64,000 nt of DNA from an uncultured Lachnospiraceae bacterium (lineage in GTDB: Bacteria > Bacillota > Clostridia > Oscillospirales > CAG-272): assembly GCA_964562175.1 (NCBI GenBank), contig CAZLRV010000010.1, forward strand, positions 1,344-65,343, given 5' to 3'. Below the pieces are notes generated by a model, which was given only the letters and a program-made list of their open reading frames with translations, was not told where the DNA came from and did not search any database. Positions 12,333 to 37,863 of this stretch are shown piece after piece; the first letter of the stretch is position 1, and each line of letters begins with the position of its first letter. A program made the translations under genes and the position numbers.

Positions 12333-12446
12333 CCGATACGGTGAGTATTCCGACTTAACGGGCAAATGCCCGAATTACGGTAATGACGGTTGCGACGGAT
12401 TTTCACCGAACTTCCCTCTGATCCGCTCTGTGCGGAACCATATCGG
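12333..12446 (-). promoter_or_regulatory. probable cobalamin (B12) riboswitch aptamer
   Basis: The minus-strand RNA reads CCGAUAUGG (P1 5') - UCCGC acag GCGGA hairpin - GGGAAguucGGUGAAAAUCCG - ...ACCGUAA - CGGGCA uu UGCCCG hairpin - AAGUCGGAAUAC (B12-box-like) - CCGUAUCGG (P1 3'). It sits just downstream of a sigma-A-type promoter and upstream of an ECF/DUF4430 operon. Confidence 0.6.
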
Positions 12447-12466
12447 CAAATATTCTGTTTTTATGT

Positions 12467-20281: not shown

Positions 20282-21769
20282 ATGAGTGAACAAATAGAAA
20301 ACAACGAACAAGAACTGAGCGAGGTAGTGGCTATACGTCACGCAAAGCTTGACGCACTTAAAGAAAGCGGAAAAGACCCATTCGTTATAACAAAATACGA
20401 CGTTACCGCAAAATGCAAGCAGATAAAGGAAGAATTTGAGACTCTCGAAAATCAGACAGTAAGAATTGCCGGCAGAATGATGTCACGTCGTGACATGGGA
20501 AAGGCAAACTTTATAGATATTGCCGATTCCACCGGCATGGTTCAGGCGTATATAAAGATCGACGATATAGGACAAGAGCTTTTTGATGATTATAAAAAGT
20601 GGGATATCGGCGATATAATCGGTCTTGAGGGCTTCGTATTCAAAACACGTAGAGGCGAGATATCGGTGCATGCAAAGAATTTAGTGCTTCTTTCCAAGTC
20701 ACTGCTTCCCTTGCCCGAAAAGTGGCACGGTCTTAAGGACACGGACACACGTTACCGTCAGAGATATGTCGATCTGATAGTCAATGCCGAGGTTCGCAAT
20801 ACCTTTGTTTGCAGAAGCAAAATAATAGCCGAAATGAGGAATTACTTAAACGGAGAGGGCTTCTTGGAGGTTGAAACTCCCCTGCTTCACAATCAAGCGG
20901 GCGGTGCGGCTGCTCGTCCCTTCGTCACACACCACAATTCTCTCGATATAGATATGTATCTGCGTATAGCGCTTGAGCTTCATTTGAAGAGATTGATAGT
21001 CGGAGGCTTCGACAAGGTCTACGAAATAGGCAGAGTATTCCGTAACGAGGGCATGGACGCACGCCACAACCCCGAATTTACATTGATGGAGCTTTATCAA
21101 GCGTATACCGACTTTGAGGGAATGATGGATCTGAGTGAGAATCTTATAAGACATCTTGCAAAGACCGTCGTAGGCTCAACGCAGATAAAATTCGGAGAAT
21201 ATGATATAGACCTTGAAAAGCCGTTTGAAAGACTTTCCATGCTTGATGCCGTAAAGAAATATTCCGGCGTTGACTTCAATATTATAACCTCGCTTGAGCA
21301 AGCAAGACATGCTGCGAAGAATTTTCATATTGAATTTGAAGAGCGTCATAAGATCGGCGATATACTCAATCTGTTCTTTGAAGAATATGCCGAAAAGAAG
21401 CTTATTCAACCGACGTTTATCACACATCATCCCGTTGAAATATCACCTCTTGCAAAAAGATGCCCCACCTCACCGAATTATACCGAAAGATTTGAGCTTT
21501 TCATCGCAGGCTCGGAGCATGCCAACGCATTTTCGGAGCTTAACGACCCCATCGACCAACGTGCGAGATTTGAAGCCCAAGCGGCGCTCAAAGCACAGGG
21601 CGATGAAGAGGCTTGCGGCGTTGACGAAGATTTCCTCTGCGCCCTCGAATACGGTATGCCCCCCACAGGCGGTATCGGTATCGGCGTAGACCGCCTCGTT
21701 ATGCTCTTGACAAATAATACCTCCATCCGCGATGTTCTTCTCTTCCCGACAATGAAACCCATTGATTGA
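20282..21769 (+). CDS. lysS: lysine--tRNA ligase (class II)
   Basis: OB-fold N-terminus and class II motifs (FRNEGMDARHNPEFTLMELY, GIGIGVDRLVMLL). Confidence 0.95.
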   Translation: MSEQIENNEQELSEVVAIRHAKLDALKESGKDPFVITKYDVTAKCKQIKEEFETLENQTVRIAGRMMSRRDMGKANFIDIADSTGMVQAYIKIDDIGQELFDDYKKWDIGDIIGLEGFVFKTRRGEISVHAKNLVLLSKSLLPLPEKWHGLKDTDTRYRQRYVDLIVNAEVRNTFVCRSKIIAEMRNYLNGEGFLEVETPLLHNQAGGAAARPFVTHHNSLDIDMYLRIALELHLKRLIVGGFDKVYEIGRVFRNEGMDARHNPEFTLMELYQAYTDFEGMMDLSENLIRHLAKTVVGSTQIKFGEYDIDLEKPFERLSMLDAVKKYSGVDFNIITSLEQARHAAKNFHIEFEERHKIGDILNLFFEEYAEKKLIQPTFITHHPVEISPLAKRCPTSPNYTERFELFIAGSEHANAFSELNDPIDQRARFEAQAALKAQGDEEACGVDEDFLCALEYGMPPTGGIGIGVDRLVMLLTNNTSIRDVLLFPTMKPID

Positions 21770-21785
21770 CATATTATTTTTCAAA

Positions 21786-21831
21786 GCCGTAATTTGATAT
21801 CTTAAGATATCAAATTACGGCTTTCTTTTTT
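21786..21831 (+). terminator. lysS Rho-independent terminator
   Basis: Perfect 36-nt palindrome GCCGTAATTTGATATCTTAAGATATCAAATTACGGC followed by TTTCTTTTTT. Confidence 0.85.
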
Positions 21832-21909
21832 AAGCTGCACTTTAGGATACGAGCCATGGTATAAAAGTCATGGTTTTTTGTCGCTTTAATTGTTAATAAT
21901 GTTTTTACA

Positions 21910-21931
21910 ATATATATATATATATATATAT
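21910..21931. repeat. (AT)11 microsatellite
   Basis: Uninterrupted AT dinucleotide run read directly from the sequence. Confidence 0.95.
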
Positions 21932-21935
21932 GATG

Positions 21936-21944
21936 TGATATAAT
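21936..21944 (+). promoter_or_regulatory. extended -10 element TGaTATAAT (copy upstream of the island operon)
   Basis: Perfect TATAAT with an upstream TG, immediately after the (AT)n tract. An identical element lies at 37250-37258. Confidence 0.45.
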
Positions 21945-22299
21945 CACATATATAGGAATCAACGACAAGATAAATTCGAAAACATTCGATGCTCTCACGG
22001 GGTCAAAAGAACGTCAATCATACTCAAGCAGAAAGCTTCGGGGTTTCTTTAATGAAAAGTCAAAAATATTATAGAATATTTTGTCGAAACACATCGAGCT
22101 TCCGTTCAAACGACGGTGTACCATAATAGAGTTTGATAATACATTCAGAAACGAAACAGCTTCTTGTTTCAAATACATAGTATGGAATCCGTTTATTCAG
22201 AACTATACCTAAGCCGGCGTCGAAATTGTCTGCCGTAGCAGCATAATCTGCGGAGATCATCAATGTGAATATCATAAAATATTGAAGGAGGCTAAAAGG

Positions 22300-25152
22300 A
22301 TGATCAAAGGAAATAAAACGATAATTGACGATTTTACGCAGTATCTCTCGGAAAAAGTATCTCCTTCTCAGCTCTCGGGGTTATACTTCTGTTTTTCTGA
22401 AATCGAGAATTTCTGTTTAAAAGTCAAAGTATTACATAAACCTCTATTTGAAACGACAGATTTTGAGACGATCAAAAAAGTCCGTCAAACAATAGAACAG
22501 AACAAGATTTTCAGAGTTACGCATAAGCGTCAGTATAATAAAATTCTGATTGCTTGCAGGCAATATTATCTTTATATCAAAGAAGGTCATTTTCCTCAGG
22601 GAGAGAAACAATTCAAAGAGGAATGTAAGGATCGTTCGAAAAATATTGAAGCAGCATCGCAAAAAAACGCTGTCGGTAATGCTTCCGTTGAGACACAAAT
22701 TGTACGAACAAATCAAGACGAGAGGCTTTTGCAGAAATATCCGATCGTTTACAAGCAAGTATACAATGCACTTATAAATGCCGGTTGTTCATTATCAATT
22801 GAAATTATCTGCAATAAGATCGGGCGTATTGCTCGCTCTGCGGTGCTTGAAGAGATATTGGATAGTGTAAGTTGGGCAAAGTGGGTTGAGAACGAGTATT
22901 CTTTTTCAACTGAAATTGAGGAGCATCACATTGTCGCAAACGAGGTCAATGAGAAATCAATAGTAAACGAAGCAAAAACCGCTGTTACCTACGTAATTGA
23001 TTTCAACAGTTCCTTTGATCTTACTTACTCCAAGCCTATATCATTCACCTATTTTGGAGCAAAAAAAGAATTCGGTAACACATGGGTCGATCTTTATATT
23101 GCTTTTTTCGAGGCAATTCACGAGGATCATCATCATTTGTTGAAGCCCGGTATGTCATTCTCAAAAACAGGCACACGAGTTGAACTTGCGGAAAATACAA
23201 ATTACGATCTCATGATCGATCCAAAGCATATTCCCGGAACGAATCTAATGCTGGAAACCAATGTTAGTGCAAAAGATGTTGCTTCCAAAATCAAATACGT
23301 TCTTGAGCTGTGCGGCATTGACTTTGAAAATATTATAATCGGTTACATTAAAAAGAATGACGTTTCCCCCTCAAAGGAAGAGTGTCCCACTAATCCATCA
23401 AGAAGAGGAGCAAGCGGCTATAGCGCTGATTTTTACAATTTTCTATCAAAGAGATTAGGAATGGCAGAGGCAACTTGCCGTAGCTACGTTTCGGCTATCA
23501 ATAACTGTGAATCATTTGCAAAAGAGCATCACTTTGTGTCTTGGCAACTATACGGAGTACAACAAACCGCCGCAGAAGAAACTATTAAGCTCCTAATGGC
23601 AGATGAAGCTTTTCAAAAGTATACTGCGAGCCAACATAACAGATTTCGCACAGCACTTCAAAAATATCTGTTGTTTGTTGGAAGCGAAGCTGTAATTCAC
23701 AGCACTGCACCGGAACCTTATAGAACCGAAGTTGCCGCACCATATAGAAATGAAGAATATGAGATGATGCTCAGCCGTTTTTTTCAAAAAGGATTTCGAA
23801 TGGAATCTCCGCTTGAGATACGAAAATTCAGGCGATACTACTCGTCAACTTACGAAAAAGAGCTTCTCGATTCCGACGATGAAATAAGCTGCAATATTAG
23901 GAAGCTTGCAATTGAATACGACGGAAAAGCTTTCTTGCCCGTTGCAATGCTCAATGATGAAGTTAAAGCTCAACTGTATGCCTACATTGATTCCGCATTT
24001 GCCGAAGGAAAAAAAGCAATTTACTATCAGGCATTATACGCAGAGTTTGCAGAAACTTTTCTTGACCACCATATTCATAATGCAGATATGCTTAAAGCGT
24101 ATTTATCTGCCACAGCTAATGGGAAATTCTATGTTCAAAAGAATTTTATATCAAAGGAAGAAAATGTAACGATAGATCCGCTCTCGGAAATTCGCAAATG
24201 CCTCATTGAGTATGGTAGACCCGTAGAATACGAAGAATTATTTGAAGCGTTACCGCACATACCGCAGAAGAAAATCAAGTATCTATTAGCAAGCAATGGA
24301 GAGTTTATAAATAACGGACAAGGTACTTACTTTCATGAAAAAACAGTACGGCTTTCGGATGATGAGCTTGAAAGCATTGCCGAAATTATCAGCTGTACAA
24401 TAGAAGACAAGGACTACATGGGCGGCAATGAGCTCTATGATGCAATTAAGGCGAAGTACGGTTACATTATAGAAGATAATAAGCTGCTATCCATATATGG
24501 CTTCAGAGACGCTCTGAGCGCAAAACTCGGCGATAGATTTTCTTTTAAGGGAAATATTATCAGCCGCTACGGCAACGAGTTATCTATGGCTGATGTATTT
24601 GCAAAATACGCCCAAACGCACGACAGCTTCACATTGTCTGAACTTCAGGAACTTGCTTCTAATCTGGCAACAGTAATTTACTTTGATGCCGTATACGAAA
24701 ACAGCCTGAGAGTCAGCAAAGAGCAGTTTGTATCTAAAGAAATGGCGCAGTTTGCAATCTCCGAGACCGATGATGTGCTTGATCGCATTTGTCTTGGAAA
24801 ATATATTCCGATTTGTGAAGTTCAAAACTTCGGAATTTTCCCATATGGAGGATTTACTTGGAATAGTTATTTGCTGGAACACTATGTTGCAAGTTATAGC
24901 CATAAATACAAGCTTCTTCACAGAGGCTTCAGCGAAACGGAATGTGCGGGCGCAATAGTACGACGTTCCGCAAATATCAATAGCTTTGACGATTTAATTG
25001 TCGATATCTTAGTCAACGACCCGATCGAATTGAACCAATCCTCGGTACTTCAGTACTTGAGTGACAAAGGATATCTTGTGCGAAGAAGATATTCCGAAAT
25101 TGAATCGCTTATGATCAAAGCGAAGGCACAGAAACAGAGGAGGGGCGACTAA
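22300..25152 (+). CDS. large uncharacterised protein, first gene of the BREX-like operon
   Basis: 950-aa ORF (ATG at 22300 after GGAGG; the track start is TTG at 22282). No P-loop or other catalytic motif seen. It has an internal duplication of an ~84-aa module. Its stop lies 2 nt before brxP. Confidence 0.7.
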   Translation: MIKGNKTIIDDFTQYLSEKVSPSQLSGLYFCFSEIENFCLKVKVLHKPLFETTDFETIKKVRQTIEQNKIFRVTHKRQYNKILIACRQYYLYIKEGHFPQGEKQFKEECKDRSKNIEAASQKNAVGNASVETQIVRTNQDERLLQKYPIVYKQVYNALINAGCSLSIEIICNKIGRIARSAVLEEILDSVSWAKWVENEYSFSTEIEEHHIVANEVNEKSIVNEAKTAVTYVIDFNSSFDLTYSKPISFTYFGAKKEFGNTWVDLYIAFFEAIHEDHHHLLKPGMSFSKTGTRVELAENTNYDLMIDPKHIPGTNLMLETNVSAKDVASKIKYVLELCGIDFENIIIGYIKKNDVSPSKEECPTNPSRRGASGYSADFYNFLSKRLGMAEATCRSYVSAINNCESFAKEHHFVSWQLYGVQQTAAEETIKLLMADEAFQKYTASQHNRFRTALQKYLLFVGSEAVIHSTAPEPYRTEVAAPYRNEEYEMMLSRFFQKGFRMESPLEIRKFRRYYSSTYEKELLDSDDEISCNIRKLAIEYDGKAFLPVAMLNDEVKAQLYAYIDSAFAEGKKAIYYQALYAEFAETFLDHHIHNADMLKAYLSATANGKFYVQKNFISKEENVTIDPLSEIRKCLIEYGRPVEYEELFEALPHIPQKKIKYLLASNGEFINNGQGTYFHEKTVRLSDDELESIAEIISCTIEDKDYMGGNELYDAIKAKYGYIIEDNKLLSIYGFRDALSAKLGDRFSFKGNIISRYGNELSMADVFAKYAQTHDSFTLSELQELASNLATVIYFDAVYENSLRVSKEQFVSKEMAQFAISETDDVLDRICLGKYIPICEVQNFGIFPYGGFTWNSYLLEHYVASYSHKYKLLHRGFSETECAGAIVRRSANINSFDDLIVDILVNDPIELNQSSVLQYLSDKGYLVRRRYSEIESLMIKAKAQKQRRGD

Positions 25153-25154
25153 TT

Positions 25155-27515
25155 ATGTATTCATATAATTGGGACGCAGAAACGGGAGGTCTTCTGCTGA
25201 ATACTTCCCCACTGACATTCAGCAAAGAACCTCGTCCGGTATATTATAAAGAACTTGACATTCTCGGGTTTGATAAGTATTGGAATTACGCAAAAGATGA
25301 CACATATCCGTATATGTGGGCAGAAGCAAACAATTACTTTTACAGGGGGCGGCTTGTTGCAAAGACAAAAGGAGGCAGTCTGTATACTGCACCTGAAATC
25401 ATTATTCTTGAGGATGCGGAACCCGACGGGGAGCCGCTCCGCTTCGTTGACATACCGGCAATGGTGAGCAAGAACCGTGATTTGATCGAGAAGCTCGCTG
25501 CTGATACCATCAAAAAAATCTATAACATTTATATAGATTATGCAGGGAGGGTAGATGTTTTCTATGTTGCATTCAGCGGCGGTAAAGATAGTATAGTAGC
25601 ACTTGATCTTGTGCAACGAGCATTGCCGCACAACAGCTTCAAGGTGTTGTTTGGGGATACTGAAATGGAATTTCCCGACACATACGATATTGTTGACAAA
25701 ATCCGCAATTATTGTATTCAAGAAGATATCGAATTTTTAAGATCAAAGTGCGATTTCCCACCTGAGTACACATGGCACAAATTCGGTCCTCCTGCCCAAA
25801 CAATTCGCTGGTGCTGTAGTGTACATAAAACTGCGCCTCAAGTTATACTTCTTCGAGAACACATGAATAATCCTCACTTTCGAGGAATGGCCTTTACAGG
25901 AGTTCGGGGCGATGAAAGCGTGTCAAGAAGTGAGTACGAAGGAGTCAGTCAAGGAGAGAAAATCCGAGGACAATATAGTTGTCATCCGATTTTGGAGTGG
26001 AACTCGGCAGAATTGTTTGCCTATATTTATGATAGAAATCTTCTGATAAATGAAGCATATAAAAAAGGAAACAGTCGAGCGGGTTGTTTAGTTTGTCCGT
26101 TAGCAGCATCCAAAAATATGTATTTTAAAGAGCAAGCGTACAACACCGGGTGCAACGGGCATAGGTCAACGGCAACATTTAACGATATCATCTTGGAAAC
26201 CACTTCGAAAGAACTCTCAGCTCCGGAAGCTATAAAAGAATATATGGATATCGGAGGCTGGAAAGCAAGGCGAAGCGGCAAGGAACTTTCTTTTGCCAAA
26301 AGTTATTCAACTGAGGTCTTTGAAAAAGGTATTCTCACAATTCATTTAACACAAAAAAATACTGATTGGAAACAGTGGATAAAAACAATCGGTGATATCT
26401 CATTTTTAGAAAATGGAGATGTCGATGTACTTTATCGTGGAAAATTATATCACATTGAAATCGAAGAAAATGATAAGGAACTCACAGCAGTTGTAAACAT
26501 CGGTTCAAATACACAAAAGGATATTTATTTTGCATCGGAACTAAAGACTATCTTTAGGAAAACTGCTTATTGCATCGGTTGTAGAGTTTGTGAGGCAAAT
26601 TGTCCAAATGGATTTATAACCATGAAAAACGGGTGCGTTACTATAGATAATCGATGTGTTAAGTGCAAGAAATGTCATGATATATTTCATGGTTGCTTAG
26701 TTGCGAACTCGTTACGATTGCCGAAAGGAGATAATAAAATGGGAAGCATAGATAGATATGGAAATATGGGAATTGAACTCAATTGGGTGAAAGAGTATTT
26801 CAAAACAAAAGATGAATTTTGGAATTCCCCACACAGTTTAGGAACGAACAAGGTTAAATACCTTAAAAGTTTTCTTAATGATAGTGAGATCACCGTGAAA
26901 GGTAAGCTTTCCGATTTCGGCAGAGTCATTGATTACATCGGTATAGAAAATACAGATGCATGGGCATTGATGCTCTGCAATCTTGCCTATACATCGGAAT
27001 TTAATTGGTGGGTAAAGAATATCAAATTCTCGATTATATACACTCCAGACACAATTTATGCGATGCTCGATGATGCAATGAGCAAAAATTCAAAATCGCA
27101 CATTGTTTCCGCATATAAGAATATCTTGATTTCAAATCCACATTTTGGTAACGAAATAGGGCTTGGAACTTGCGAATACGAAATTAAAAACGAAAAGCGT
27201 TTATGGAACAGTGTGATTAGGCTCGAGTGGAAAACGCCTAATCCTCTCGTTATCCTCTACAGTCTTTTTAAATTTGCTGAGGCTTGTGGAAATTATCACC
27301 AGTTCACGCTCTCTCGGTTGCTGAATCACGATATTGAAAGTGACGGCATCAGCCCTACCGAGATCTTCGGACTTGATAGGAAGCAGATGGAAAAGCTTCT
27401 TAGCGGTCTTTCCATTAACTACCCTGATTTCATCAACGCAAGCTTTACGCTTGATCTTGATAACATTACGCTAAATTGCGAAAAGACATCGCAAGATGTT
27501 TTGAAGCTGTTCTAA
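25155..27515 (+). CDS. brxP: PAPS-reductase/PP-loop ATP pyrophosphatase family protein with ferredoxin-type Fe-S motif (BrxP-like, DndC/SspD-related)
   Basis: PP-loop VAFSGGKDSIVALDL, then RWCCSVHKTAP, GVRGDES, and CIGCRVCEANCPNG...CVKCKKC. The long C-terminal extension may be DUF4007-like (inference). Confidence 0.8.
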   Translation: MYSYNWDAETGGLLLNTSPLTFSKEPRPVYYKELDILGFDKYWNYAKDDTYPYMWAEANNYFYRGRLVAKTKGGSLYTAPEIIILEDAEPDGEPLRFVDIPAMVSKNRDLIEKLAADTIKKIYNIYIDYAGRVDVFYVAFSGGKDSIVALDLVQRALPHNSFKVLFGDTEMEFPDTYDIVDKIRNYCIQEDIEFLRSKCDFPPEYTWHKFGPPAQTIRWCCSVHKTAPQVILLREHMNNPHFRGMAFTGVRGDESVSRSEYEGVSQGEKIRGQYSCHPILEWNSAELFAYIYDRNLLINEAYKKGNSRAGCLVCPLAASKNMYFKEQAYNTGCNGHRSTATFNDIILETTSKELSAPEAIKEYMDIGGWKARRSGKELSFAKSYSTEVFEKGILTIHLTQKNTDWKQWIKTIGDISFLENGDVDVLYRGKLYHIEIEENDKELTAVVNIGSNTQKDIYFASELKTIFRKTAYCIGCRVCEANCPNGFITMKNGCVTIDNRCVKCKKCHDIFHGCLVANSLRLPKGDNKMGSIDRYGNMGIELNWVKEYFKTKDEFWNSPHSLGTNKVKYLKSFLNDSEITVKGKLSDFGRVIDYIGIENTDAWALMLCNLAYTSEFNWWVKNIKFSIIYTPDTIYAMLDDAMSKNSKSHIVSAYKNILISNPHFGNEIGLGTCEYEIKNEKRLWNSVIRLEWKTPNPLVILYSLFKFAEACGNYHQFTLSRLLNHDIESDGISPTEIFGLDRKQMEKLLSGLSINYPDFINASFTLDLDNITLNCEKTSQDVLKLF

Positions 27516-27528
27516 GGAGAAATATGCA

Positions 27529-30500
27529 ATGCCAATGTTAGAGAAATATCGAGATTATTTTGATATCGATCCTGATTATTTTCCTGCCGTAAACGAAGCA
27601 GTTATTACAAAGAATCCGAATGTGTGGAAGAAGTTTTTCCCGCACGAAACCTTTATTAAGCTCATCAAGAACACTGTCAGTGTACTTGAACGCAGACAAA
27701 AACAATGTTTGTGGGTCGAGGGTGCTTATGGTACCGGTAAATCTCATGCGGTTCACACGCTGAAAAAGCTTTTGGATTCGGACGATGCGGACACCCGCGA
27801 GTATTTTAAAAAATATGATCTTGATAATGACCTGCTCAATCGGTTTCAAGCAGTCAAATCCGGCGCTCGCATTCTTACCGTTCACCGCTATGGTTCCGCT
27901 ACCATCCATGGTGATCACAATCTCGTATTCGCAGTTCAGGAAAGCATAGAAAAAGCTCTTATCGATGCCGGCATTGAGAATAAGGGTGGCAACGCTCTGA
28001 AAAATGCCGCAATCGCTTGGCTTTCCGATAAGGATAACAAAAGCTACTTCAACGGACTTATCACCGGCACATATTCAGATATATTCGGCGGAGATAATGT
28101 TGATATGGTTATCGAAAAGCTTCGCACATTTTCCGGCGATGCATTGGCAAAAGCTATGGATAACATCTTCAGAGTCGCTGACGAGCGTCAAATAAAGGCA
28201 TTGTCTTTGAGTGTTACCGACCTCTGTAATTGGATCCGTGAGGTAATAAAAGCCAATAGCCTGAAGGCTATTGTGTTTATCTGGGATGAATTCACCGAGT
28301 ACTTTTATAACAATACTCGTAATCTGACAGGCTTCCAAGAACTGTGCGAAATCAGTGAAACAGATCCCTTCTATTTTGTATTGGTGACACATGTTACGCA
28401 GGGTTTATTCCATGAACACGATCGTGATTTTATTAAGTTGAACGGACGCTTCGTCAGCCCGCATAGCTTAATTAGTCTGCCTGAAAACATTGCATTTCAG
28501 CTCATGGGTGCGGCAATGGAGAAAAACCAAGATCCTGCCGTAGCAGAAGATTGGGAGATCGCCTTGGGAGATTTAACCGACAGGACTCAAAATTCTCGAA
28601 AGCAGGTTAAATCAGTTGCCCGTATTACGGACAAAGAAATGACGGATATTCTCCCGATACACCCCTATGCGGCATTGCTTTTGAAGCATATATCATCTGC
28701 ATTTGATTCCAATCAACGCAGCATGTTCGATTTCATAAAAAATGATCGTGACGACGAGATCAAGGGCTTTCGGTGGTTTATTGACACTTTCGGTCCGGAG
28801 GACGACAATCCTCTGCTTTCCGTCGATATGCTATGGGAATTCTTCTACGACAAGGGCAAAGAATATCTTGCGCATGATATCCGTTCGATTCTTGACTACT
28901 ATAACCGAACCGGTAATCAAAGGTTGGATTCCGACCAAAAGCGCGTGTTAAAGACCGTTCTGCTGTTGCAAGCTATTTCTCAATATGCGGGTGATTCGGT
29001 AGAACTGTTTATTCCCAACGAAAAGAATCTCAATAATGCGTTTGAGGGCACGGATATGGAGGGTTCAGCAGCTCGTTGTGCAGATCAGCTTGTCCGTGAT
29101 AAGATTCTGTTTTCCAAATCTTTGGGCGGTGGCAAATTCCAGTACGCCGCTTATAACAATGAGGGAGAAATTGATGTTACGCCTTTTGAGGAGCAGATCG
29201 ATAAAAAGAGTACATCTGCTTTGATCATTGAAGAACTTGCAGACAGAACCAGAATCGTTGACGCAATTACTTTGGGCGGGGCGTTGAAGCTTCGTTACGA
29301 GCTACGTTATGTATCGTCATCTGATTTTGATTCTGCGATCAAGCAGCTTCGTAATACCGAAGATAAATATGACAACAAAATCGTTGCGGTCGTTTGCTTT
29401 GCAAAGGATGATGCCGAGAGTGTTGTTATTGGCAAAAAGATCAGAGATGCGCTTGCCGATGGTTCCTATCACATGATCTTTATCGATGCATCCCGAACAC
29501 CACTCGGAGCTGATGGATATAGTACATACCGTCATGATATGGCTTTGTCCATGTCTCAGCAAGGCAAAGACGGAGCGCTGGCAACACAGTATGCAAATAA
29601 CGCCAAAGATTCCCTGAAGAAATGGAAAAACAGAATTACAGCCGGCGAATTTATTATTCACACTGCGGATAAACGTGACGGAGAGCGTGCTACCTCTCTC
29701 GATGCGCTGTACACAATTCTTGCCGAAGTGAATAAGAAAAAGTTTCCCGGATGCCTTGAAGGTGCGTACAATGTTATTGCAAATATGTATACGCCGAATA
29801 ATCTTAAGCAGGGTGTTGAGTGTGCATTTAACGAAAAAACCGCAGGTACTTTTCTTTCCGGAAGTCCCGCAACAAAGCTTGAAACCGCACTGGAAGGTGC
29901 ATGGAAGGTAGCAGAATACTGGAAGATAAAGCCACACCTTTTGATTTCCAAAATCAAGCTTTGTGTTGATGAAATTGTAACCGATGGGTTTAACAATGGC
30001 GGTCGTGTATCTATTAAGAAGATCTACGATGTACTGAAAACCGCTCCTTACGGATTTATGCCCTGCAATCTCACTGCATTTATTCTGGGATTTGTTCTCA
30101 AGGAGTATGCGACCGGTACGTACAGTTGGAGCGACGGCTTGACAAATGATGTTCTGAATGTGGTCAAGCTGAAGGAGATGATCGATGAGGTCATCCGACT
30201 TGAGATCACGCCTAATCCTCGCTACAAAGACAAATACATCGTTGCTATGACTCAGGAAGAAAAAGCTTTTAATGAAATTACTTCGACCGCATTCGGGATC
30301 CCTCTCAACATATGTACCTCCGTACCGAACACAAGAGAACGGATTCGCGGAAAAATGAAGGAATACTCATTCCCGATCTGGACAATCAAATATATCTTGG
30401 ATTCGGTCGTAACAAAAACCGATAAAGCCGTATTAAGTGAAATTATAGACCTTTTCTGCGGAATTGCAAATAGCAATAACATGGGATCATCTAAGACCGA

Positions 30501-31731
30501 CAGCGATATAGCCATGTCGATCGGAAAGCTTTCACTCGACAATATTGATGCGGCATCCGATTTGAAGAATATTCTGACAAAAGAAAATTGCACAAATGGC
30601 ATGATACGATACATTGCGTCTTTTGACAATGGGTCGTTGGTTAATTTGTCTGAGGAGATCGGCGACGGTGGTCAATATATCAATGTATTACGCAAGAAAT
30701 TTGATGCGGATGCCGCGACTTGGGTGTGGAATGTCGAAACCGTGCAGCAGAAGATTTGCGAGGTGATATTAGAATATGCTACTATTGTCGAGAGCAATAA
30801 AGTTATCTCCAAGAACATCTCCTATGATGCAACTATTAGAGAATGGTGTGATAAATGTGGATATATTCGCATTTCTTATGCCGCCGCAAAAAACTATCTG
30901 GATGAGCTTGGTCCTTTCCTGAGCCTTCTGCATAGCATGAAAAAAACCGGAACTTTGCCGGATTCTCAGAAAAAAGCCTTTTTGGAGTTGCTTGAAGCAA
31001 ACGCCGAGTTATTCCGTGACTTTTACAATAATCAAGTCAAAATGTTTAAGCGAGTGTGCGGATATTATTTGGACAAGCTATCCGACGAAGAAATAAAAGA
31101 AGTTTTCAGCACAATTCCCTCCGGCTCCTTTACTTACGAAAAAGCTGACTACCTAAACACCGTTGAAAGTAAAGTGAAGTCCTACAAGGAGGGACGAAAG
31201 AGCACGAAGCTGAAGAAGTTCTGGAAGGATAAGACAGGCACCGATTCGCCGCGTGAATGGTCCGAAAAGCATGAAATGCCGATACTTTGTTTAATTCCCG
31301 ACGATGAAGTAGCAAAAGCAAGAACGGCTTTCGGTGCAGTTAACCGTACAAAGCCTGACGAGGCATCCATAGACAAAGCAAATGAGTATTTTGCTTCCGC
31401 AAAATTCTTCGACTTGCTTGATGATGAAGCAGCACTCGACAGAGCGTTCAGAAACGGTGTCATAAAGAACTACTCGGTTATGCTTACAGACATACCGGCT
31501 GTAAAGGAATATCTTAATTCTCACATTGAAGCGGAGCCTTTTGATTGGTTCGGTCTTCCGGAAATCGAAAAGAAATTACACATGATGGCAGAAGCCAACT
31601 ACAATCAAGGCGGTTGCGAGCGTGCATTGGCAAAAATCGATGAAATGGATATTGCCGATGTTAAGAAATATCTAAAGGATTTGATCAAGGATAATATGAT
31701 CGTCGGCATGGAGATCATCAAAGAAAACTAA
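27529..31731 (+). CDS. brxC: BREX P-loop ATPase BrxC/PglY-like
   Basis: 1400 aa. Walker A EGAYGTGKSH near residue 65 and Walker B VFIWDEF. Positioned between brxP and pglZ. Confidence 0.75.
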   Translation: MPMLEKYRDYFDIDPDYFPAVNEAVITKNPNVWKKFFPHETFIKLIKNTVSVLERRQKQCLWVEGAYGTGKSHAVHTLKKLLDSDDADTREYFKKYDLDNDLLNRFQAVKSGARILTVHRYGSATIHGDHNLVFAVQESIEKALIDAGIENKGGNALKNAAIAWLSDKDNKSYFNGLITGTYSDIFGGDNVDMVIEKLRTFSGDALAKAMDNIFRVADERQIKALSLSVTDLCNWIREVIKANSLKAIVFIWDEFTEYFYNNTRNLTGFQELCEISETDPFYFVLVTHVTQGLFHEHDRDFIKLNGRFVSPHSLISLPENIAFQLMGAAMEKNQDPAVAEDWEIALGDLTDRTQNSRKQVKSVARITDKEMTDILPIHPYAALLLKHISSAFDSNQRSMFDFIKNDRDDEIKGFRWFIDTFGPEDDNPLLSVDMLWEFFYDKGKEYLAHDIRSILDYYNRTGNQRLDSDQKRVLKTVLLLQAISQYAGDSVELFIPNEKNLNNAFEGTDMEGSAARCADQLVRDKILFSKSLGGGKFQYAAYNNEGEIDVTPFEEQIDKKSTSALIIEELADRTRIVDAITLGGALKLRYELRYVSSSDFDSAIKQLRNTEDKYDNKIVAVVCFAKDDAESVVIGKKIRDALADGSYHMIFIDASRTPLGADGYSTYRHDMALSMSQQGKDGALATQYANNAKDSLKKWKNRITAGEFIIHTADKRDGERATSLDALYTILAEVNKKKFPGCLEGAYNVIANMYTPNNLKQGVECAFNEKTAGTFLSGSPATKLETALEGAWKVAEYWKIKPHLLISKIKLCVDEIVTDGFNNGGRVSIKKIYDVLKTAPYGFMPCNLTAFILGFVLKEYATGTYSWSDGLTNDVLNVVKLKEMIDEVIRLEITPNPRYKDKYIVAMTQEEKAFNEITSTAFGIPLNICTSVPNTRERIRGKMKEYSFPIWTIKYILDSVVTKTDKAVLSEIIDLFCGIANSNNMGSSKTDSDIAMSIGKLSLDNIDAASDLKNILTKENCTNGMIRYIASFDNGSLVNLSEEIGDGGQYINVLRKKFDADAATWVWNVETVQQKICEVILEYATIVESNKVISKNISYDATIREWCDKCGYIRISYAAAKNYLDELGPFLSLLHSMKKTGTLPDSQKKAFLELLEANAELFRDFYNNQVKMFKRVCGYYLDKLSDEEIKEVFSTIPSGSFTYEKADYLNTVESKVKSYKEGRKSTKLKKFWKDKTGTDSPREWSEKHEMPILCLIPDDEVAKARTAFGAVNRTKPDEASIDKANEYFASAKFFDLLDDEAALDRAFRNGVIKNYSVMLTDIPAVKEYLNSHIEAEPFDWFGLPEIEKKLHMMAEANYNQGGCERALAKIDEMDIADVKKYLKDLIKDNMIVGMEIIKEN

Positions 31732-31742
31732 GGAGGTACGAT

Positions 31743-34073
31743 ATGACCACCGATGAAGTTATAAAAAAGATAGATCGCTATCTGAGGAAGGATGATGTCG
31801 GATCTATTATAGTTGATGTACAAAACAAGACCGATATGGAGATAATTGTTACTCATTATCAATTACCTCAATACACCTTCATATATGCATCAGATCCTGA
31901 AATCTGTAATTATGACGAGTTCCCGACAATTGATAGGCTTCTTGAAAGAATTGCTAATGAGACTGACAGCTTTTTCATTAAAGAGCTTTCTACCTTTTAT
32001 ATGCTGAAAGGTGAAAAAGAGCTGTCTCGGGAATTAAAGGAGCTTCTGTCTATGAATATCGCCGGTCATGTTGTATTTCTTACTTATCAATGCAAAAATT
32101 ATCTTCAAGCACTTATCAAAAGCGATAAACGTCTGCAGGGACGAGTTTGTATTATTGACGGACAACAGTGTCTACGTCCAAAGCTTGTATTTACGATTGG
32201 CGGAGTTCGATCTTTGGGCAACGGCAAGACGGTCAAGGGGTTGCATAGCCTTGCCGGTGCCATTGAATGCGAGTCGGCAGACACGATCTATGTTGAAACA
32301 AAAAAGCTCAAGGCAAATTTTCCTTTATCACTATACACTGTTTTTGAACGACACAGTCCTTATGATATCTTGTGTGATTTAGACGAATTAACTTCCGTTC
32401 TTGACCGTAATGCCGGTTCGGAGGAAGAATGGGAGTACGCTCTTGCTGAGTTTCAGACATTTCACTCATGGAGTGATTTTCTAACTGACAAGTTTGGAAG
32501 CGTTCAAAGCCTTGGCAGTGCCATTTCAAACTATAAATTAAATTCTAACGATAAAACTTGGTGTTGGCTTTACTTTATTGGCTTGAAATTATTTGGCGCG
32601 ACTAATGACCGATACATGAACAACGCAGTATCTAAGGCTTTGTCGCCTTCTGATTTTGTACGTGGCATATATCGAGGCATTTTAGAATTAGAGATAAACG
32701 ACGATTCGTTTGAGACAGTATACGAAAGAAGAAAGGCATTATTGAATGCACTGGGTAATCCGATAAACGAGACCATCGATTTTTGCAAAATTGTACTCAG
32801 CAAAGGAAAGAATGCAATATGTTATCTTACTGACAATTCCATTCAGGAGAAGGAACTCGTATTTGAACTGCTTGAAAAATATGGAACGGATTATACAAAA
32901 GCAGAAATCCTCTCAATATTGAGGAAAGTATATCCGGCATTGTATTCATATTTACAGCCGTTTAGATTTAAAAATGAGCTTTTGGATGGTTATTTTCAGG
33001 ACTATAAGTATCAGAAGGTGATTAACAAAATCTTTCCGGAGTTTATGGCACTCGTTGAACAACAAGCAGTTACCAGGGACTACAATGTACTGCTTCCGCC
33101 TCGAAGTGCGTTGGTGGAAAATATTGACACAGCAAATACACAAACATATTTTACCGATGCAATGGGTGTGGAATTTCTTGGATTTATCATGGATAAATGC
33201 AAAGAACTGCAGCTAATGGCTAAGGTATCTGTGTGTAGAAGTGAATTACCGTCGATTACAAGCCGCAATAAGGATTTTTGGGAGGAGCTTTCCAACGCAA
33301 GTTATCCGATCATCACTGTTGATAAGCTTGATAAGATCAAACATCACGGAGAAGATGGATTTGACTACAGTCGCAAAGACAGAAAACTTCCGATCCATTT
33401 GATAAGAGAGCTTGAAATAATTGACGATCTTCTCAAAAAAATTAAGTCAGACCTTGCATCGGGTAAGTATGCTAAAGGGATACTCATCTCAGATCATGGA
33501 GCGAGCAGGCTCGCAGTGATCCACGAAACCGAAAATCTTTGGGAGATGGGCTCCGCCGGAAAACATTCCGGAAGATGTTGTCCCAAAAGCGAGATCGACA
33601 CAAGACCGAATAGTGCTGCCGATGCGGATGATTTCTGGGCATTGGCAAACTATGATCGTTTTAAAGGCAGTAGGAAAGCAAACGTTGAGGTTCACGGTGG
33701 TGCGACCTTAGAGGAAGTCGTAGTTCCGATCATTGAAATCACATACTTGAACAATTCCATTGAGGTTAAACTAATGCCGCTTGATGCTCCGGCAAGTTTC
33801 GTTGGAGCGCCGAAAATCAGCGTAAGTTTCCGAAAAAAGGCAGCCATTAAGATTTTCGCTACACGTAAATTGATGGATGTGTGCATTGAGATCGATGGTC
33901 ATACATATGATGCCGAGCCTATAGACGATAATTTCTATGTAGTAAAGGAAATGCCGGAGATCCGCAAAGCAAAGCAATATGCTGTTGATGTATACGCTTG
34001 CGGAAACAAGATTGCCGATTCTTTACCGCTGGTCGTTGAGAAAGAAAGCGGAAGCGAAAACAGCATACTCTAA
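31743..34073 (+). CDS. pglZ: PglZ domain (alkaline-phosphatase superfamily) protein
   Basis: Hallmarks of the PglZ domain: YFTDAMGVEFLG ... ILISDHGASRL ... HGGATLEEVVVPII. AGGAGG RBS. Confidence 0.85.
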   Translation: MTTDEVIKKIDRYLRKDDVGSIIVDVQNKTDMEIIVTHYQLPQYTFIYASDPEICNYDEFPTIDRLLERIANETDSFFIKELSTFYMLKGEKELSRELKELLSMNIAGHVVFLTYQCKNYLQALIKSDKRLQGRVCIIDGQQCLRPKLVFTIGGVRSLGNGKTVKGLHSLAGAIECESADTIYVETKKLKANFPLSLYTVFERHSPYDILCDLDELTSVLDRNAGSEEEWEYALAEFQTFHSWSDFLTDKFGSVQSLGSAISNYKLNSNDKTWCWLYFIGLKLFGATNDRYMNNAVSKALSPSDFVRGIYRGILELEINDDSFETVYERRKALLNALGNPINETIDFCKIVLSKGKNAICYLTDNSIQEKELVFELLEKYGTDYTKAEILSILRKVYPALYSYLQPFRFKNELLDGYFQDYKYQKVINKIFPEFMALVEQQAVTRDYNVLLPPRSALVENIDTANTQTYFTDAMGVEFLGFIMDKCKELQLMAKVSVCRSELPSITSRNKDFWEELSNASYPIITVDKLDKIKHHGEDGFDYSRKDRKLPIHLIRELEIIDDLLKKIKSDLASGKYAKGILISDHGASRLAVIHETENLWEMGSAGKHSGRCCPKSEIDTRPNSAADADDFWALANYDRFKGSRKANVEVHGGATLEEVVVPIIEITYLNNSIEVKLMPLDAPASFVGAPKISVSFRKKAAIKIFATRKLMDVCIEIDGHTYDAEPIDDNFYVVKEMPEIRKAKQYAVDVYACGNKIADSLPLVVEKESGSENSIL

Positions 34074-34085
34074 GGAGGAATAGCC

Positions 34086-35537
34086 GTGATTGAAAAATTG
34101 AGAAATTGTTTTGATGATATGGTTGTCTACAAAGACTTAAAGAAAAGTAATTTTTTCTCGGCTTTAGGACTGCCTTCGTTTTTGAGAGATTGGTTGATAA
34201 AGAAATTTTCCGATGATGATGGCAATCTTGACGTTGAGAAGCTTACCGACTTTATCCGTACATATCTTCCGAATAAGGAAGAATGGATAAGTATTAAAGA
34301 CAGGATCATCAACGACAACGAGAGGGTGAAGCTTCTCACAAGAATATCTGTTGATATTAGCATTAAAACGGGTGAAGTCGCATTTTCACTTCCCAATTTT
34401 GGGCTGACAAACAAGGAAACAATGATTGACAATTCCACCTGGGAGCAATATAGAGGTGAGCTTGCAAGCGGTCAAGAAATATGGGGAGTTATTGAGTTGG
34501 GTTATCGTCCGCCCGATGATACGGTGAAGCCTAAGATCCCGGGCAAGATCAAGCTTATCGGATTTACCAATTTTTGCCCATACACAATTGATTTAGACTA
34601 CTATAAAGATGTCCGAAATGAATTTACCACTTCCGAGTGGATCGATGTGCTTCTCGGTGCAATTGATTACAATGCATCGGGGTATGAAAACGAAGAACAA
34701 AAGCTTGCTATGCTGACGAGAATTCTGCCCTTTGCCGAGAAACGCCTTAACCTAATAGAGCTTGCACCCAAAGGAACGGGAAAATCCTATGTTTTCGGTC
34801 ATGTTAGTAAATACGGACTCCTCACCGACGGAGGAAAAGTAACACGTGCAAAAATGTTCTATGATGTTGCGCGAAAAACTCCCGGCTTTATTTCCGGGAA
34901 CGATTTTGTTGCCATTGACGAGGTGAAACTTGTTCAATTTGGCGATGTCAATGAGATGCGCTCCATTATGCAAGGATATATGGAGTACGGTCAATTCAAC
35001 ATTGGAGGATATGAAGGAAAATCTGATGCAGGTGTAATATTCCTCGGCAATATTGCTCAGGATAATATGGATGAGTACCGGAATATGTTCTCGGAGCTTC
35101 CTCCCCTATTTCAGGAAAGTGCATTGGTAGATAGAATACACGGCTTTATAAAAGGCTGGGATATTCCCAGGATGAACGATGATCTCAAGCTCTCCGGCTG
35201 GGCGTTAAATTCGGAATATTTTTGCACGATCCTGCATGAGCTACGTAGCGATATTTCTTACCGAACTATTGTTGATAGGGTGATTGAAGTCCCCGACAAG
35301 GCAGATACTCGTGATACCGAGGCGATAAAAAGAATCGCCACTGGTTATTTAAAGCTTTTGTTTCCCAATGTGAGAAGCGTGTACGATATAAAACCCAAAA
35401 CATTCCAACAATATTGCCTTCGTCCGGCGGTGCGTATGAGAAAGATCATTAAAAGGCAGCTTGGTATTTTGGACAAAGAATTCAAAGGTAAGGATGTTCC
35501 ATCTTTCGCGTTAAAGGAGATAACGGATGAAGAGTAA
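34086..35537 (+). CDS. brxL: BrxL-like AAA+ ATPase lacking the C-terminal Lon-protease domain
   Basis: Collinear with the BrxL N-terminal and ATPase regions (EWIDVLLGAIDY, ELAPKGTGKSYVF, VAIDEV, DRIHGFIKGWDIPRM), but it ends at 483 aa. GTG start after AGGAGG. Confidence 0.8.
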   Translation: MIEKLRNCFDDMVVYKDLKKSNFFSALGLPSFLRDWLIKKFSDDDGNLDVEKLTDFIRTYLPNKEEWISIKDRIINDNERVKLLTRISVDISIKTGEVAFSLPNFGLTNKETMIDNSTWEQYRGELASGQEIWGVIELGYRPPDDTVKPKIPGKIKLIGFTNFCPYTIDLDYYKDVRNEFTTSEWIDVLLGAIDYNASGYENEEQKLAMLTRILPFAEKRLNLIELAPKGTGKSYVFGHVSKYGLLTDGGKVTRAKMFYDVARKTPGFISGNDFVAIDEVKLVQFGDVNEMRSIMQGYMEYGQFNIGGYEGKSDAGVIFLGNIAQDNMDEYRNMFSELPPLFQESALVDRIHGFIKGWDIPRMNDDLKLSGWALNSEYFCTILHELRSDISYRTIVDRVIEVPDKADTRDTEAIKRIATGYLKLLFPNVRSVYDIKPKTFQQYCLRPAVRMRKIIKRQLGILDKEFKGKDVPSFALKEITDEE

Positions 35538-35724
35538 CTGCGTCATATGCGGAAAAGATCGCCTTAGTAAAGACACCATCGGCATTAACAGGAAATTGTT
35601 AGGAGAAGATATAGATAACTTTTACTGCCTTGACTGTCTTGCAGAGTATCTCGGTTGTACAGTCGATGAACTCCTTGATAAGATCGAGGAGTTCAAAGAA
35701 GAGGGCTGTAAGCTGTTTGCCTGA
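35527..35724 (+). CDS. 65-aa zinc-ribbon protein (CxxC ... CxxC)
   Basis: CVICGKD ... CLDCLAEY. The ATG overlaps the brxL stop by 11 nt, with an AAGGAG RBS inside brxL. Confidence 0.6.
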   Translation: MKSNCVICGKDRLSKDTIGINRKLLGEDIDNFYCLDCLAEYLGCTVDELLDKIEEFKEEGCKLFA

Positions 35725-35738
35725 TCATAAAGAGAAAA

Positions 35739-36863
35739 ATGAAAAGTATTGTTTATGCCGATAATGCGGCAACCACAAAATTGGATATTGATGCATTTGA
35801 GGCGATGAGGCCATACTTATTGGAAGAATACGGCAATGCTTCTCAGCCATACTCGTTTGCCCGAACAGCAAAAAATGCCTTGAAAGAATCCAGAGAAATC
35901 ATTGCGCAATGCATTGGAGCCGCTCCGGAAGAAATATACTTTACTTCAGGCGGAACGGAAAGCGATAATTGGGCAATCAAGGGTAGTGCTTTTTCCGACC
36001 CCTCGAAACGTGCGACGATCACATCAACAATTGAGCATCATGCAATTCTGAATGCCTGTGCAGACATTGAAAGATTAGGATATCCTGTAAGCTATTTGCC
36101 GGTAGATTCTTATGGTAAAGTTTCGCCTCAAGCACTTTCCGAATGGATTACCGACAATACAAGATTGGTATCGATTATGTTTGCAAACAATGAAATAGGA
36201 ACGATCCAAGAAATTCAAAAATTATGTAGCATTACACATTCGATGGGAGCAATCTTCCATACCGATGCAGTACAAGCCGTAGGTCATACCGATATCGATG
36301 TGAAATCACTTGGGATCGATATGCTGTCCGCATCCGCTCATAAGTTTAACGGTCCTAAAGGCATTGGTTTTCTGTATATACGGAGCGGAACGAAAATCAC
36401 TTCCTATATCAGCGGTGGCAAACAAGAATTTGGCATGAGGGCGGGGACGGAGAATGTAGCATCAATTGTTGGTATGGCGGTTGCTCTTGAGAAGAATCTG
36501 CGGTTTTTGAACGAGAACACGGCTCACATAAAAAAGCTTGAGAAAGATCTAATCGATGGATTACGCATGAAAAAGATTGATTTTGTACGAAATGGCGGTG
36601 ATATTGGAATCCCGGGCAATATAAGCTTATCGTTTGGCGGTTATGAGGGAGAAGCGTTATTGCACCGGCTCGATCTTATGGGAATTTCCGTATCGACCGG
36701 TTCTGCTTGCGACAGTCATAATACTCGGATATCCCATGTCCTTAGGGAAATTGGGCTTAGTAATATATTGGCTAAAGGAACAATTAGAATTTCCCTCGGC
36801 AAATCTAATACCGAGGATGACATAAAAGCGATCTTATCGGCACTCTCAAAAATCGTTACCTAA
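35739..36863 (+). CDS. cysteine desulfurase, class V aminotransferase (NifS/IscS/DndA/SspA-like)
   Basis: PLP lysine motif SASAHKFNGPKGIGFLY and catalytic loop STGSACDS. Size 374 aa. Confidence 0.88.
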   Translation: MKSIVYADNAATTKLDIDAFEAMRPYLLEEYGNASQPYSFARTAKNALKESREIIAQCIGAAPEEIYFTSGGTESDNWAIKGSAFSDPSKRATITSTIEHHAILNACADIERLGYPVSYLPVDSYGKVSPQALSEWITDNTRLVSIMFANNEIGTIQEIQKLCSITHSMGAIFHTDAVQAVGHTDIDVKSLGIDMLSASAHKFNGPKGIGFLYIRSGTKITSYISGGKQEFGMRAGTENVASIVGMAVALEKNLRFLNENTAHIKKLEKDLIDGLRMKKIDFVRNGGDIGIPGNISLSFGGYEGEALLHRLDLMGISVSTGSACDSHNTRISHVLREIGLSNILAKGTIRISLGKSNTEDDIKAILSALSKIVT

Positions 36864-37056: not shown

Positions 37057-37096
37057 ACAGCAATAAAACTCCTTGATTGACATATTATTTTTCAAA

Positions 37097-37142
37097 GTCG
37101 TAATTTGATATCTTAAGATATCGAATTACGGCTTTCTTTTTT
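37097..37142 (+). terminator. terminator copy at the island right end (likely terminates the BREX-like operon)
   Basis: GTCGTAATTTGATATCTTAAGATATCGAATTACGGC plus TTTCTTTTTT. The two substitutions relative to the lysS copy both become G-U pairs. Confidence 0.75.
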
Positions 37143-37214
37143 AAGCTGGACTTTTAGGATATGGGCCATGATTAAAAGTCATGGCTTTTTGTTATTTTCA
37201 ATGTTAATAAAATG

Positions 37215-37246
<32 letters not shown>

Positions 37247-37249
37247 TCG

Positions 37250-37258
37250 TGATATAAT
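37250..37258 (+). promoter_or_regulatory. extended -10 element TGaTATAAT upstream of the DUF4234 gene
   Basis: Perfect TATAAT with TG, about 78 nt upstream of the ATG at 37336. Confidence 0.5.
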
Positions 37259-37335
37259 TGCATACATAAGAATTTACGACAAGATAAATTCGATATTGTT
37301 CGACACATCTTGCCGCAAAAAACAAGGTGAAAAGT

Positions 37336-37863
37336 ATGAAAACCTGCCCTGCGTGTAACGCACAATTTGACGACAGTGCAACATTCTGCGGATGTTGCGG
37401 TAATTCCTTTCCGCAAGCGGAGACGGTGCAAGTAGAGACACCGAAAGCGGAAATACATTATCCGCCGGCACTTCAATTACCTACCCATCGCGGACTTATC
37501 AAAATGGTTCTTTTGAGTTTGATCACATTCGGAATATACGGTATCGTGGTTCAAAGCGAAATATCGGGTGAGATCAACATCGTTGCGAGCCGATATGACG
37601 GAAAACGTACAGTTCACATGCTTGCGGTACCTTGGCTTACATGTCTGACATTCGGAATCTATTTCTTTGTATGGAATCACGGCTTAGCCAAGCGTATCGG
37701 CAACGAGCTAAAGAGACGAGGCTGTAATTACTCATTCGGTGCATTACATTATTGGCTATGGAACATATTAGGTACACTTATCATAATCGGACCGTTTGTT
37801 TATTGTCACAAGTTTATGAAGGCGATGAATCTGATAAACAAAAGCTACAATATCAACGGATAA
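37336..37863 (+). CDS. zinc-ribbon plus DUF4234-like membrane protein
   Basis: N-terminal CPACNAQFDDSATFCGCCG, then two hydrophobic hairpins with FGIYG/FGIYFFVWNH motifs. Confidence 0.55.
   Translation: MKTCPACNAQFDDSATFCGCCGNSFPQAETVQVETPKAEIHYPPALQLPTHRGLIKMVLLSLITFGIYGIVVQSEISGEINIVASRYDGKRTVHMLAVPWLTCLTFGIYFFVWNHGLAKRIGNELKRRGCNYSFGALHYWLWNILGTLIIIGPFVYCHKFMKAMNLINKSYNING

Follow-up and report, generated by a model that had tools for sequence, protein, structure and literature searches.

A type 4 BREX island with its own cysteine desulfurase in an uncultured gut Clostridia genome and its probable phosphorothioate self-mark

The subject of this work is a set of type 4 bacteriophage exclusion (BREX) genes on contig CAZLRV010000010.1 (assembly GCA_964562175.1) of an uncultured Lachnospiraceae bacterium, which GTDB places in CAG-272 of the Oscillospirales. 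The analyzed DNA, referred to here as the window, is a stretch of 64,000 nucleotides corresponding to positions 1,344 to 65,343 of the contig, and all coordinates below are those of the window. An original prediction made from the letters alone had singled out positions 25155-36863 and proposed that the self-mark of this BREX variant may be a phosphorothioate (PT) or another sulfur-containing DNA modification, that the operon supplies its own sulfur donor, and that the system would be a mechanistic hybrid between BREX and the Dnd/Ssp phosphorothioation systems. At this locus, seven open reading frames (ORFs) are packed closely on the plus strand between lysS (20282-21769) and a Zn-ribbon/DUF4234 gene (37336-37863). 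They are, in order:

22300-25152, plus strand: X956, 950 aa, family unassigned; an AAGGAGG ribosome-binding site lies 6 nt before the ATG and the stop lies 2 bp before the BrxP start
25155-27515, plus strand: BrxP, 786 aa, with a PP-loop/PAPS-reductase domain, a ferredoxin domain of eight cysteines and, at the C-terminus, a putative SspB-like (DUF4007) region
27529-31731, plus strand: BrxC/PglY P-loop ATPase, 1400 aa, an SspC homologue (PADLOC BrxC, E 8e-280, full length)
31743-34073, plus strand: type-4 PglZ phosphatase-family protein (NCBIfam BREX_PglZ_4, 421.1 bits against a cut-off of 140; PADLOC PglZ, E 1.6e-90)
34086-35537, plus strand: BrxL, a Lon-like/MCM-like ATPase (TIGR02688, 419.7 bits against a cut-off of 329.3; Pfam BrxL_ATPase, E 1.4e-109)
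35527-35724, plus strand: Cys-rich zinc-finger protein, 65 aa; the start overlaps the BrxL stop codon and the end lies 14 bp before the desulfurase start
35739-36863, plus strand: group-I pyridoxal phosphate (PLP) cysteine desulfurase, 374 aa, with PLP lysine K202 and catalytic C324

The intergenic gaps within the seven-gene cluster are at most 14 bp, and strong terminators with 19-bp stems are found only at 21783-21824 and 37094-37135, both beyond the cluster; the genes are therefore co-operonic. The original prediction had already placed BrxP and the desulfurase in one operon, and the only correction needed is that the ∼200-bp space after BrxL holds the 65-aa zinc-finger ORF, a gene that it had overlooked. 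All four genes that define type 4 BREX (BrxP, BrxC, type-4 PglZ and BrxL) were detected at curated or very strong hidden Markov model (HMM) scores. BrxC additionally matches several PADLOC SspC models, with E values down to 2e-18, and PglZ has DUF7864 and DUF7863 as additional domains at its N-terminus. No methyltransferase family in Pfam, NCBIfam or PADLOC was matched by any of the seven ORFs, so the cluster is without PglX. The locus is a standard member of desulfurase-bearing type 4 BREX. A recent catalogue of this type found the desulfurase in 255 of 457 taxa, often with a zinc-finger protein, and termed it the 'sixth core component' (NAR 2026, gkag035; PMC12839542).

The putative sulfur-inserting enzyme, BrxP, matches the PADLOC BrxP model over its full length (E 7e-234, profile positions 1-774 of 779). 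Residues 138-316 match Pfam PAPS_reduct (E 4e-27) and hold the PP-loop FSGGKDS at 140-146, while the motifs CIGCRVCEANCP at 473-484 and CVKCKKCHDIFHGC at 501-514 are of the ferredoxin type and lie in an extra Cys-rich region that has been described for BrxP (PMC12839542). For the catalytic-residue alignments, homologues were taken from 61 related loci. Across 51 distinct BrxP homologues, no variation occurs in SGGKDS, in C220/C221 and C311/C314, or in any of the eight ferredoxin-region cysteines (473-514). When BrxP is aligned with the adenylylsulfate (APS) reductase 2goy, its segments RWCCSVHK and AGCLVCP fall on the CC and CxxC motifs that ligate the [4Fe-4S] cluster of that enzyme. An APS-reductase-type CC...CxxC ligand set is thereby recognizable in the PAPS-reductase domain of BrxP as a predicted cluster site.

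With respect to the phosphorothioation systems, BrxP scored 18.5 bits against the DndC equivalog TIGR03183, under the cut-off of 290.4, and matched PADLOC SspD over the PAPS domain only (E 3.1e-14). Its C-terminal ∼100 residues gave a weak match to PADLOC SspB (E 8e-4), and BrxP had no Pfam match to DUF4007 at E <= 10. The published view is that BrxP joins SspD and SspB in one protein, a claim made from HHpred, and that BrxC is homologous to SspC (PMC12914056). The weak SspB match of the BrxP tail and the SspC matches of BrxC appear to fit this published view.

The last gene of the cluster encodes a protein that matches Pfam Aminotran_5 (E 1.7e-77) as well as the PADLOC models for DndA (E 2.3e-130) and SspA (E 2.5e-129). 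It contains the motifs SAHKFNGPKG at residues 199-208 and STGSACDS at 319-326, and both the PLP lysine K202 (SAHK) and the catalytic C324 (SACDS) are invariant in 37 desulfurase homologues. Its fold, PLP lysine and catalytic Cys loop are those of a group-I (NifS/IscS-type) enzyme, as judged from sequence. The original prediction had read a class V PLP cysteine desulfurase from the same two motifs, and a PP-loop ATP pyrophosphatase of the PAPS-reductase fold with Fe-S Cys motifs at 25155-27515; the HMM matches and the presence of every quoted motif bear out both assignments.

The genomic setting of the desulfurase was examined with a scan for BrxP relatives, limited to one genome per species, which yielded 61 loci from Oscillospiraceae, Lachnospiraceae, Negativicutes, Bacteroidales, Synergistota, Cloacimonadales and Flexilinea. 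Of these, 46 were informative in that BrxL was complete and had no less than 1.5 kb of sequence after it. BrxL is followed by the zinc-finger gene in 45/46 informative loci and by the desulfurase in 43/46, the latter arrangement being spread over Oscillospiraceae, Lachnospiraceae, Negativicutes, Bacteroidales, Synergistota and Flexilinea. The complete gene order X956-BrxP-BrxC-PglZ-BrxL-Znf-CysDes is found again in 43/46, across several phyla, and the DNA flanking the cassette is unrelated from locus to locus. The desulfurases are 55-73% identical to the window copy, and this identity is correlated with that of BrxL (r = 0.84).

In the window, the cassette lies in a 15.3-kb island with imperfect direct repeats at both ends, each ∼245 bp long and with ∼88% identity between the copies. 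The GC content of the island is 0.38-0.43, as compared to 0.44-0.49 in the flanks. The repeats and the other features at and beyond the island ends are as follows:

21750-21995, plus strand: left ∼245-bp direct repeat, comprising the lysS 3' end, the 19-bp-stem terminator at 21783-21824, a (TA)n run and a TGnTATAAT extended -10 element at 21936-21944
37061-37305, plus strand: right direct repeat, comprising a decayed lysS 3' end, the terminator at 37094-37135, a (TA)n run and an extended -10 element at 37250-37258
∼22100-22299, plus strand: frameshifted remnant of the ∼110-aa N-terminal domain of X956, from three-frame translations compared with the homologue P0002
36905-37000, plus strand: fragment of a YhcG-type PD-(D/E)XK nuclease gene, from translation (Pfam YhcG_C, E 9e-5, below threshold)
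59564-60937, minus strand: large serine recombinase with Resolvase, Recombinase and Zn_ribbon_recom domains
12323-12457, minus strand: cobalamin riboswitch (Rfam RF00174, 35.4 bits; gathering score 31.5), which precedes an operon on the minus strand

The extended -10 element at 21936-21944 is the likely promoter of the island operon, and its counterpart in the right repeat stands ahead of the Zn-ribbon/DUF4234 gene. Because both repeats carry the TGnTATAAT element, the island operon appears to run from a duplicated copy of the neighbour gene's promoter. No recombinase or integrase is present within the island, and the sole recombinase of the window, the large serine recombinase, is 22 kb off. 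Integrase-mediated insertion of the island was rejected on the ground that the island is without a recombinase. The nuclease fragment sits between the desulfurase gene and the right repeat and is probably a pseudogene remnant at the island end. Beyond the island, the window is ordinary chromosome, with genes for MiaA, TldD/PmbA, formate-tetrahydrofolate ligase and ComEC in addition to the cobalamin riboswitch.

By its LysS relatives, the host belongs to an uncultured Clostridia lineage of Oscillospirales type. The nearest host relatives, whose LysS is 84-87% identical, keep the upstream synteny FtsE-FtsX-M23-CtpA-GreA-LysS. In the 0.3-1.3 kb after lysS, these relatives have no BREX gene, desulfurase or DUF4234 gene, and unrelated genes are found there instead. 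Since their contigs end 0.3-1.3 kb past lysS, the absence of the desulfurase is shown only over this short span. With regard to an isogenic empty site, an exact LysS protein look-up gave just one contig, which breaks at the repeat; the exact-protein look-up returned no record for the DUF4234 and PAP2 neighbour proteins, and the repeat core had 0 matches in a metagenome scan.

These data bear on whether the desulfurase could be a housekeeping IscS/NifS that merely adjoins the BREX genes, the case that the original prediction had itself named as fatal to its proposal. The generic NifS-like sequence of the enzyme and its score below the DndA cut-off, both given below, would be expected of such a protein. 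However, the gene is inside the repeat-bounded island and is joined to BrxL via the overlapping zinc-finger ORF, it takes the same position in 43/46 loci across phyla with unrelated flanks, and it is absent from the 0.3-1.3 kb after lysS in the nearest relatives. The housekeeping explanation is effectively refuted, and the claim that the operon brings its own desulfurase stands. Based on the island position, the low GC content, the conserved synteny and the absence of the gene from the short span seen after lysS in the relatives, the desulfurase is therefore a cassette gene.

The survey also turned up two features of the related loci. A ∼210-aa (212-aa) repeat-containing ORF of no known family follows the desulfurase in locus L070 (11349-11987) and in L071, L072, L045, L017 and L008. 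It was rejected as an eighth conserved gene, as it is confined to a small sub-clade and absent from the window. Locus L069 (6242-10515) holds a decayed cassette copy in which the zinc-finger gene is intact, BrxL is reduced to a fragment and other pieces are truncated. Its neighbours are a WYL-domain gene, Macro and ADP-ribosylglycohydrolase genes, and phage capsid and protease genes, and the region may be a defence-island or prophage junction.

PT modification by type 4 BREX has been published. PT dinucleotides were detected by liquid chromatography-tandem mass spectrometry (LC-MS/MS) in bacteria with brxPCZL (Yuan et al., bioRxiv June 2024; Nat Commun January 2026; PMC12914056). In the same work, deletion of brxC abolished PT and complementation brought it back, brxP-mcrA-brxC reconstituted PT in Bacteroides thetaiotaomicron with the host supplying SufS, and the minimal PT set was given as brxP, brxC and a cysteine desulfurase (PMC12914056). 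We read the window region, at a probability of roughly 80%, as a horizontally acquired type 4 BREX island that writes a PT self-mark and has its own sulfur supply. What was observed here is the identity of each gene, the catalytic residues, the structure of the operon, the limits of the island and the conservation of synteny. PT synthesis by BrxP and BrxC was established for homologues in other work, and by analogy the window organism would be expected to carry PT as well.

The PT self-mark put forward in the original prediction is supported by the LC-MS/MS results for homologous Bacteroidota BREX-4 systems (PMC12914056), and the BREX/Dnd-Ssp hybrid is supported by the SspC-like BrxC together with the SspD match and the weak SspB match of BrxP. 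PT as the mark, a sulfur donor encoded in the operon and a hybrid of BREX with Ssp are all in print; the inference was therefore right, and it is not novel.

For the path of the sulfur and the functions of X956, PglZ, BrxL and the zinc-finger protein, we infer the following. The desulfurase would take sulfur from L-cysteine to form a persulfide on Cys324, and the sulfur would then pass to BrxP, either directly or via the 65-aa zinc-finger protein. BrxP would be a PP-loop ATP pyrophosphatase with Fe-S clusters and, fused to it, a DNA-binding region of the SspB kind; together with the SspC-like ATPase BrxC, it would swap a non-bridging phosphate oxygen for sulfur at short motifs. PglZ and BrxL would constitute the exclusion arm against unmarked DNA, and the upstream winged-helix protein X956 may serve as a DNA-binding accessory subunit.

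It should be noted that several points weigh against a PT-writing island with a dedicated sulfur donor. The B. thetaiotaomicron reconstitution worked without a dedicated desulfurase, and the validated BREX-4 PT isolates are Bacteroidota (30/30), whereas the window clade is Clostridia-type (PMC12914056). The loss of the N-terminal domain of X956 in the window copy, described below, could signal early decay. Finally, the desulfurase reaches the cut-off of neither the DndA equivalog TIGR03235 (326 bits, cut-off 480) nor the NifS equivalog TIGR03402 (447.2 bits, cut-off 530.75). Compared with known structures, it matches generic cysteine desulfurases at up to 321 bits, SspA (6m4j) at 224 and DndA (3vax) at 165. 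By sequence it is a generic NifS-like protein, nearer to NifS/IscS structures than to SspA or DndA, and its assignment as PT donor therefore rests on context. It is a DndA/SspA analogue by context and lies outside both equivalogs.

The NifS-like sequence also suits a different role, in which the desulfurase serves mainly in the assembly and repair of the BrxP Fe-S clusters and does not itself donate the sulfur to DNA. BrxP has twelve invariant cluster-type cysteines, from which up to three [4Fe-4S] sites are predicted, and You et al. reportedly found in 2007 that DndA is able to assemble DndC as an Fe-S protein (cited in PMC12914056). However, in the Dnd and Ssp systems the same desulfurase is taken as the persulfide donor for PT. 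In addition, Fe-S loading and sulfur donation are non-exclusive, and sequence is unable to separate the two roles. We consider it rather unlikely that Fe-S loading is the main role of the enzyme, and such a role would be compatible with a PT-writing island.

A further alternative concerns the product itself, since the BrxP of this clade could make another sulfur modification, e.g., a base thiolation like those of TtcA, TtuA and ThiI, in place of backbone PT. PP-loop Fe-S enzymes with a desulfurase partner also thiolate RNA bases (PMC12914056), and the window-clade BrxP is just ∼44-53% identical to the BrxP of the Bacteroidota-named loci L025 and L048. On the other hand, BrxP, BrxC, PglZ and BrxL are all clearly orthologous to their counterparts in the validated systems, BrxC resembles SspC, the tail of BrxP has a weak likeness to SspB, and PT was found in every validated BREX-4 group. 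We consider base thiolation very improbable and retain backbone PT as the expected mark.

The zinc-finger protein, which is placed between BrxL and the desulfurase, has four Zn-type cysteines (C5, C8, C34 and C37) and a fifth cysteine, C61, all of which are invariant. C61 is located on the C-terminal tail of the predicted model, which is probably flexible and has a predicted local distance difference test score (pLDDT) of <50 for residues 59-65. Homologues form 1270 clusters, the best 120 of which are all at least 80% identical to the window copy, and this is the most conserved cassette protein in the database search. A family assignment was tried and rejected, with Foldseek returning just helix-turn-helix (HTH) look-alikes at E > 0.5 and the Pfam matches all being sub-threshold. 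A zinc-finger protein with 'similarity to HTH regulators' has already been published, and the look-alikes found with the predicted model would agree with that description. We speculate that C61 might relay persulfide from the desulfurase to BrxP, instead of the protein having a role as a transcription regulator. The invariant C61 is a detail that is possibly new.

The first gene of the operon, X956, had nothing above threshold in Pfam, NCBIfam or PADLOC and no match in a PDB profile search. Its only Pfam signal was to Phage_int_SAM_1, at E 0.01 for the homologue P0002 and E 0.065 for the window protein, in the latter for the second helix bundle only. An AlphaFold (AF2) model was computed with 31 homologues in the alignment (mean pLDDT 74, predicted template modeling score 0.36). 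The model contains two five-helix bundles at 8-94 and 371-460, a winged HTH with an alpha/beta domain within 138-351, and five or six winged-helix modules within 485-812, followed by a helical tail. The Foldseek matches of this model were solely tandem winged-helix proteins, such as UFL1/DDRGK1 (8b9x, 9e-4) and the SelB C-terminus (1lva, 2e-3), and no enzyme fold was among them.

A homologue of X956 ends <150 bp before brxP in 51/54 loci. By exhaustive search, the family comprises 1528 representative clusters, with the conserved module C-terminal in all. The conserved C-terminal ∼470 residues are present in every homologue, the N-terminal content is variable, and the lengths range from 719 to 1544 aa. 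Region 96-370 is missing in several loci with BrxP, BrxC and BrxL near-identical to those of loci that have it, and the two longest members examined contain RNA-polymerase alpha C-terminal domain and sigma region 4 DNA-binding modules. Based on the model, X956 may bind DNA as an accessory subunit of the system, perhaps to provide specificity or to act in sensing. Identity with the 'unknown' gene deleted in Bacteroides salyersiae was rejected, as that gene (HMPREF1532_02796) is downstream of brxL. A ∼950-aa winged-helix component is not listed in the text or supplement index of the type-4 BREX catalogue (PMC12839542), and X956 as a conserved upstream winged-helix gene is possibly a new detail.

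The window copy of X956 has lost the ∼110-aa N-terminal domain that is present in most homologues. Its frameshifted 5' remnant, the nuclease-gene fragment at the 3' end and the missing integrase could mean that the island is a decaying, non-functional copy. Against this, all seven ORFs are intact and retain the invariant catalytic residues, and the shortened X956 keeps a strong ribosome-binding site and matches natural forms of 949-953 aa that exist in other loci. Decay is improbable. X956 and the zinc-finger protein are the two parts of the cassette for which the published model gives no explanation. A tentative extension, to which we give clearly less than even odds, is that X956 is an undescribed seventh core BREX-4 subunit, acting in DNA recognition and specificity or as an invader sensor, and that C61 of the zinc-finger protein is a persulfide relay.

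Self-marking by backbone sulfur in place of methyl groups ties BREX mechanistically to Ssp and Dnd. Experiments had shown PT formation by BREX-4 by June 2024 (preprint; Nat Commun 2026), and the catalogue of 2026 includes the desulfurase encoded in the operon; the locus is therefore one further example, from an uncultured gut Clostridia lineage. What it still offers is a seven-gene cassette of the Clostridia type that encodes a sulfur donor, together with X956 and the ultra-conserved zinc-finger protein. X956 or the zinc-finger protein could bear on the motif specificity of BREX-4 PT and on the sulfur path to BrxP.

Among known systems, the BREX-4 of B. salyersiae DSM 18765 and other gut Bacteroidota has the same core of BrxP, BrxC, PglZ and BrxL and is likewise without PglX. 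In the B. salyersiae system, BrxP has been described as a fusion of the SspD-SspB type and BrxC is SspC-like, as it is here; the self-mark is a phosphorothioate, which is the expected mark of the window island as well. In the B. salyersiae operon, mcrA stands between brxP and brxC and PT was reconstituted on host SufS, whereas the window operon has its own desulfurase, the zinc-finger protein and the upstream X956, in an Oscillospirales-like Clostridia genome. The type 4 BREX systems of the catalogue (PMC12839542) share the same six components, the BrxP Cys-rich region and the PglZ N-terminal extra domains with the window operon. The X956-type gene that precedes BrxP in 51/54 of the loci studied here is, in contrast, not in the catalogue text or supplement index. 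The likeness to SspABCD lies in the desulfurase (SspA), the PAPS-reductase-like SspD, the ATPase SspC and the DUF4007 protein SspB, to which the BrxP tail has a weak match. The two systems differ in that SspD and SspB would be fused in BrxP and that the effectors here are PglZ and BrxL, not SspE or SspFGH. Finally, the window system resembles DndABCDE in its pairing of a desulfurase with a PP-loop Fe-S enzyme, as in DndA and DndC, and differs from it in having no DndD, DndE or DndB.

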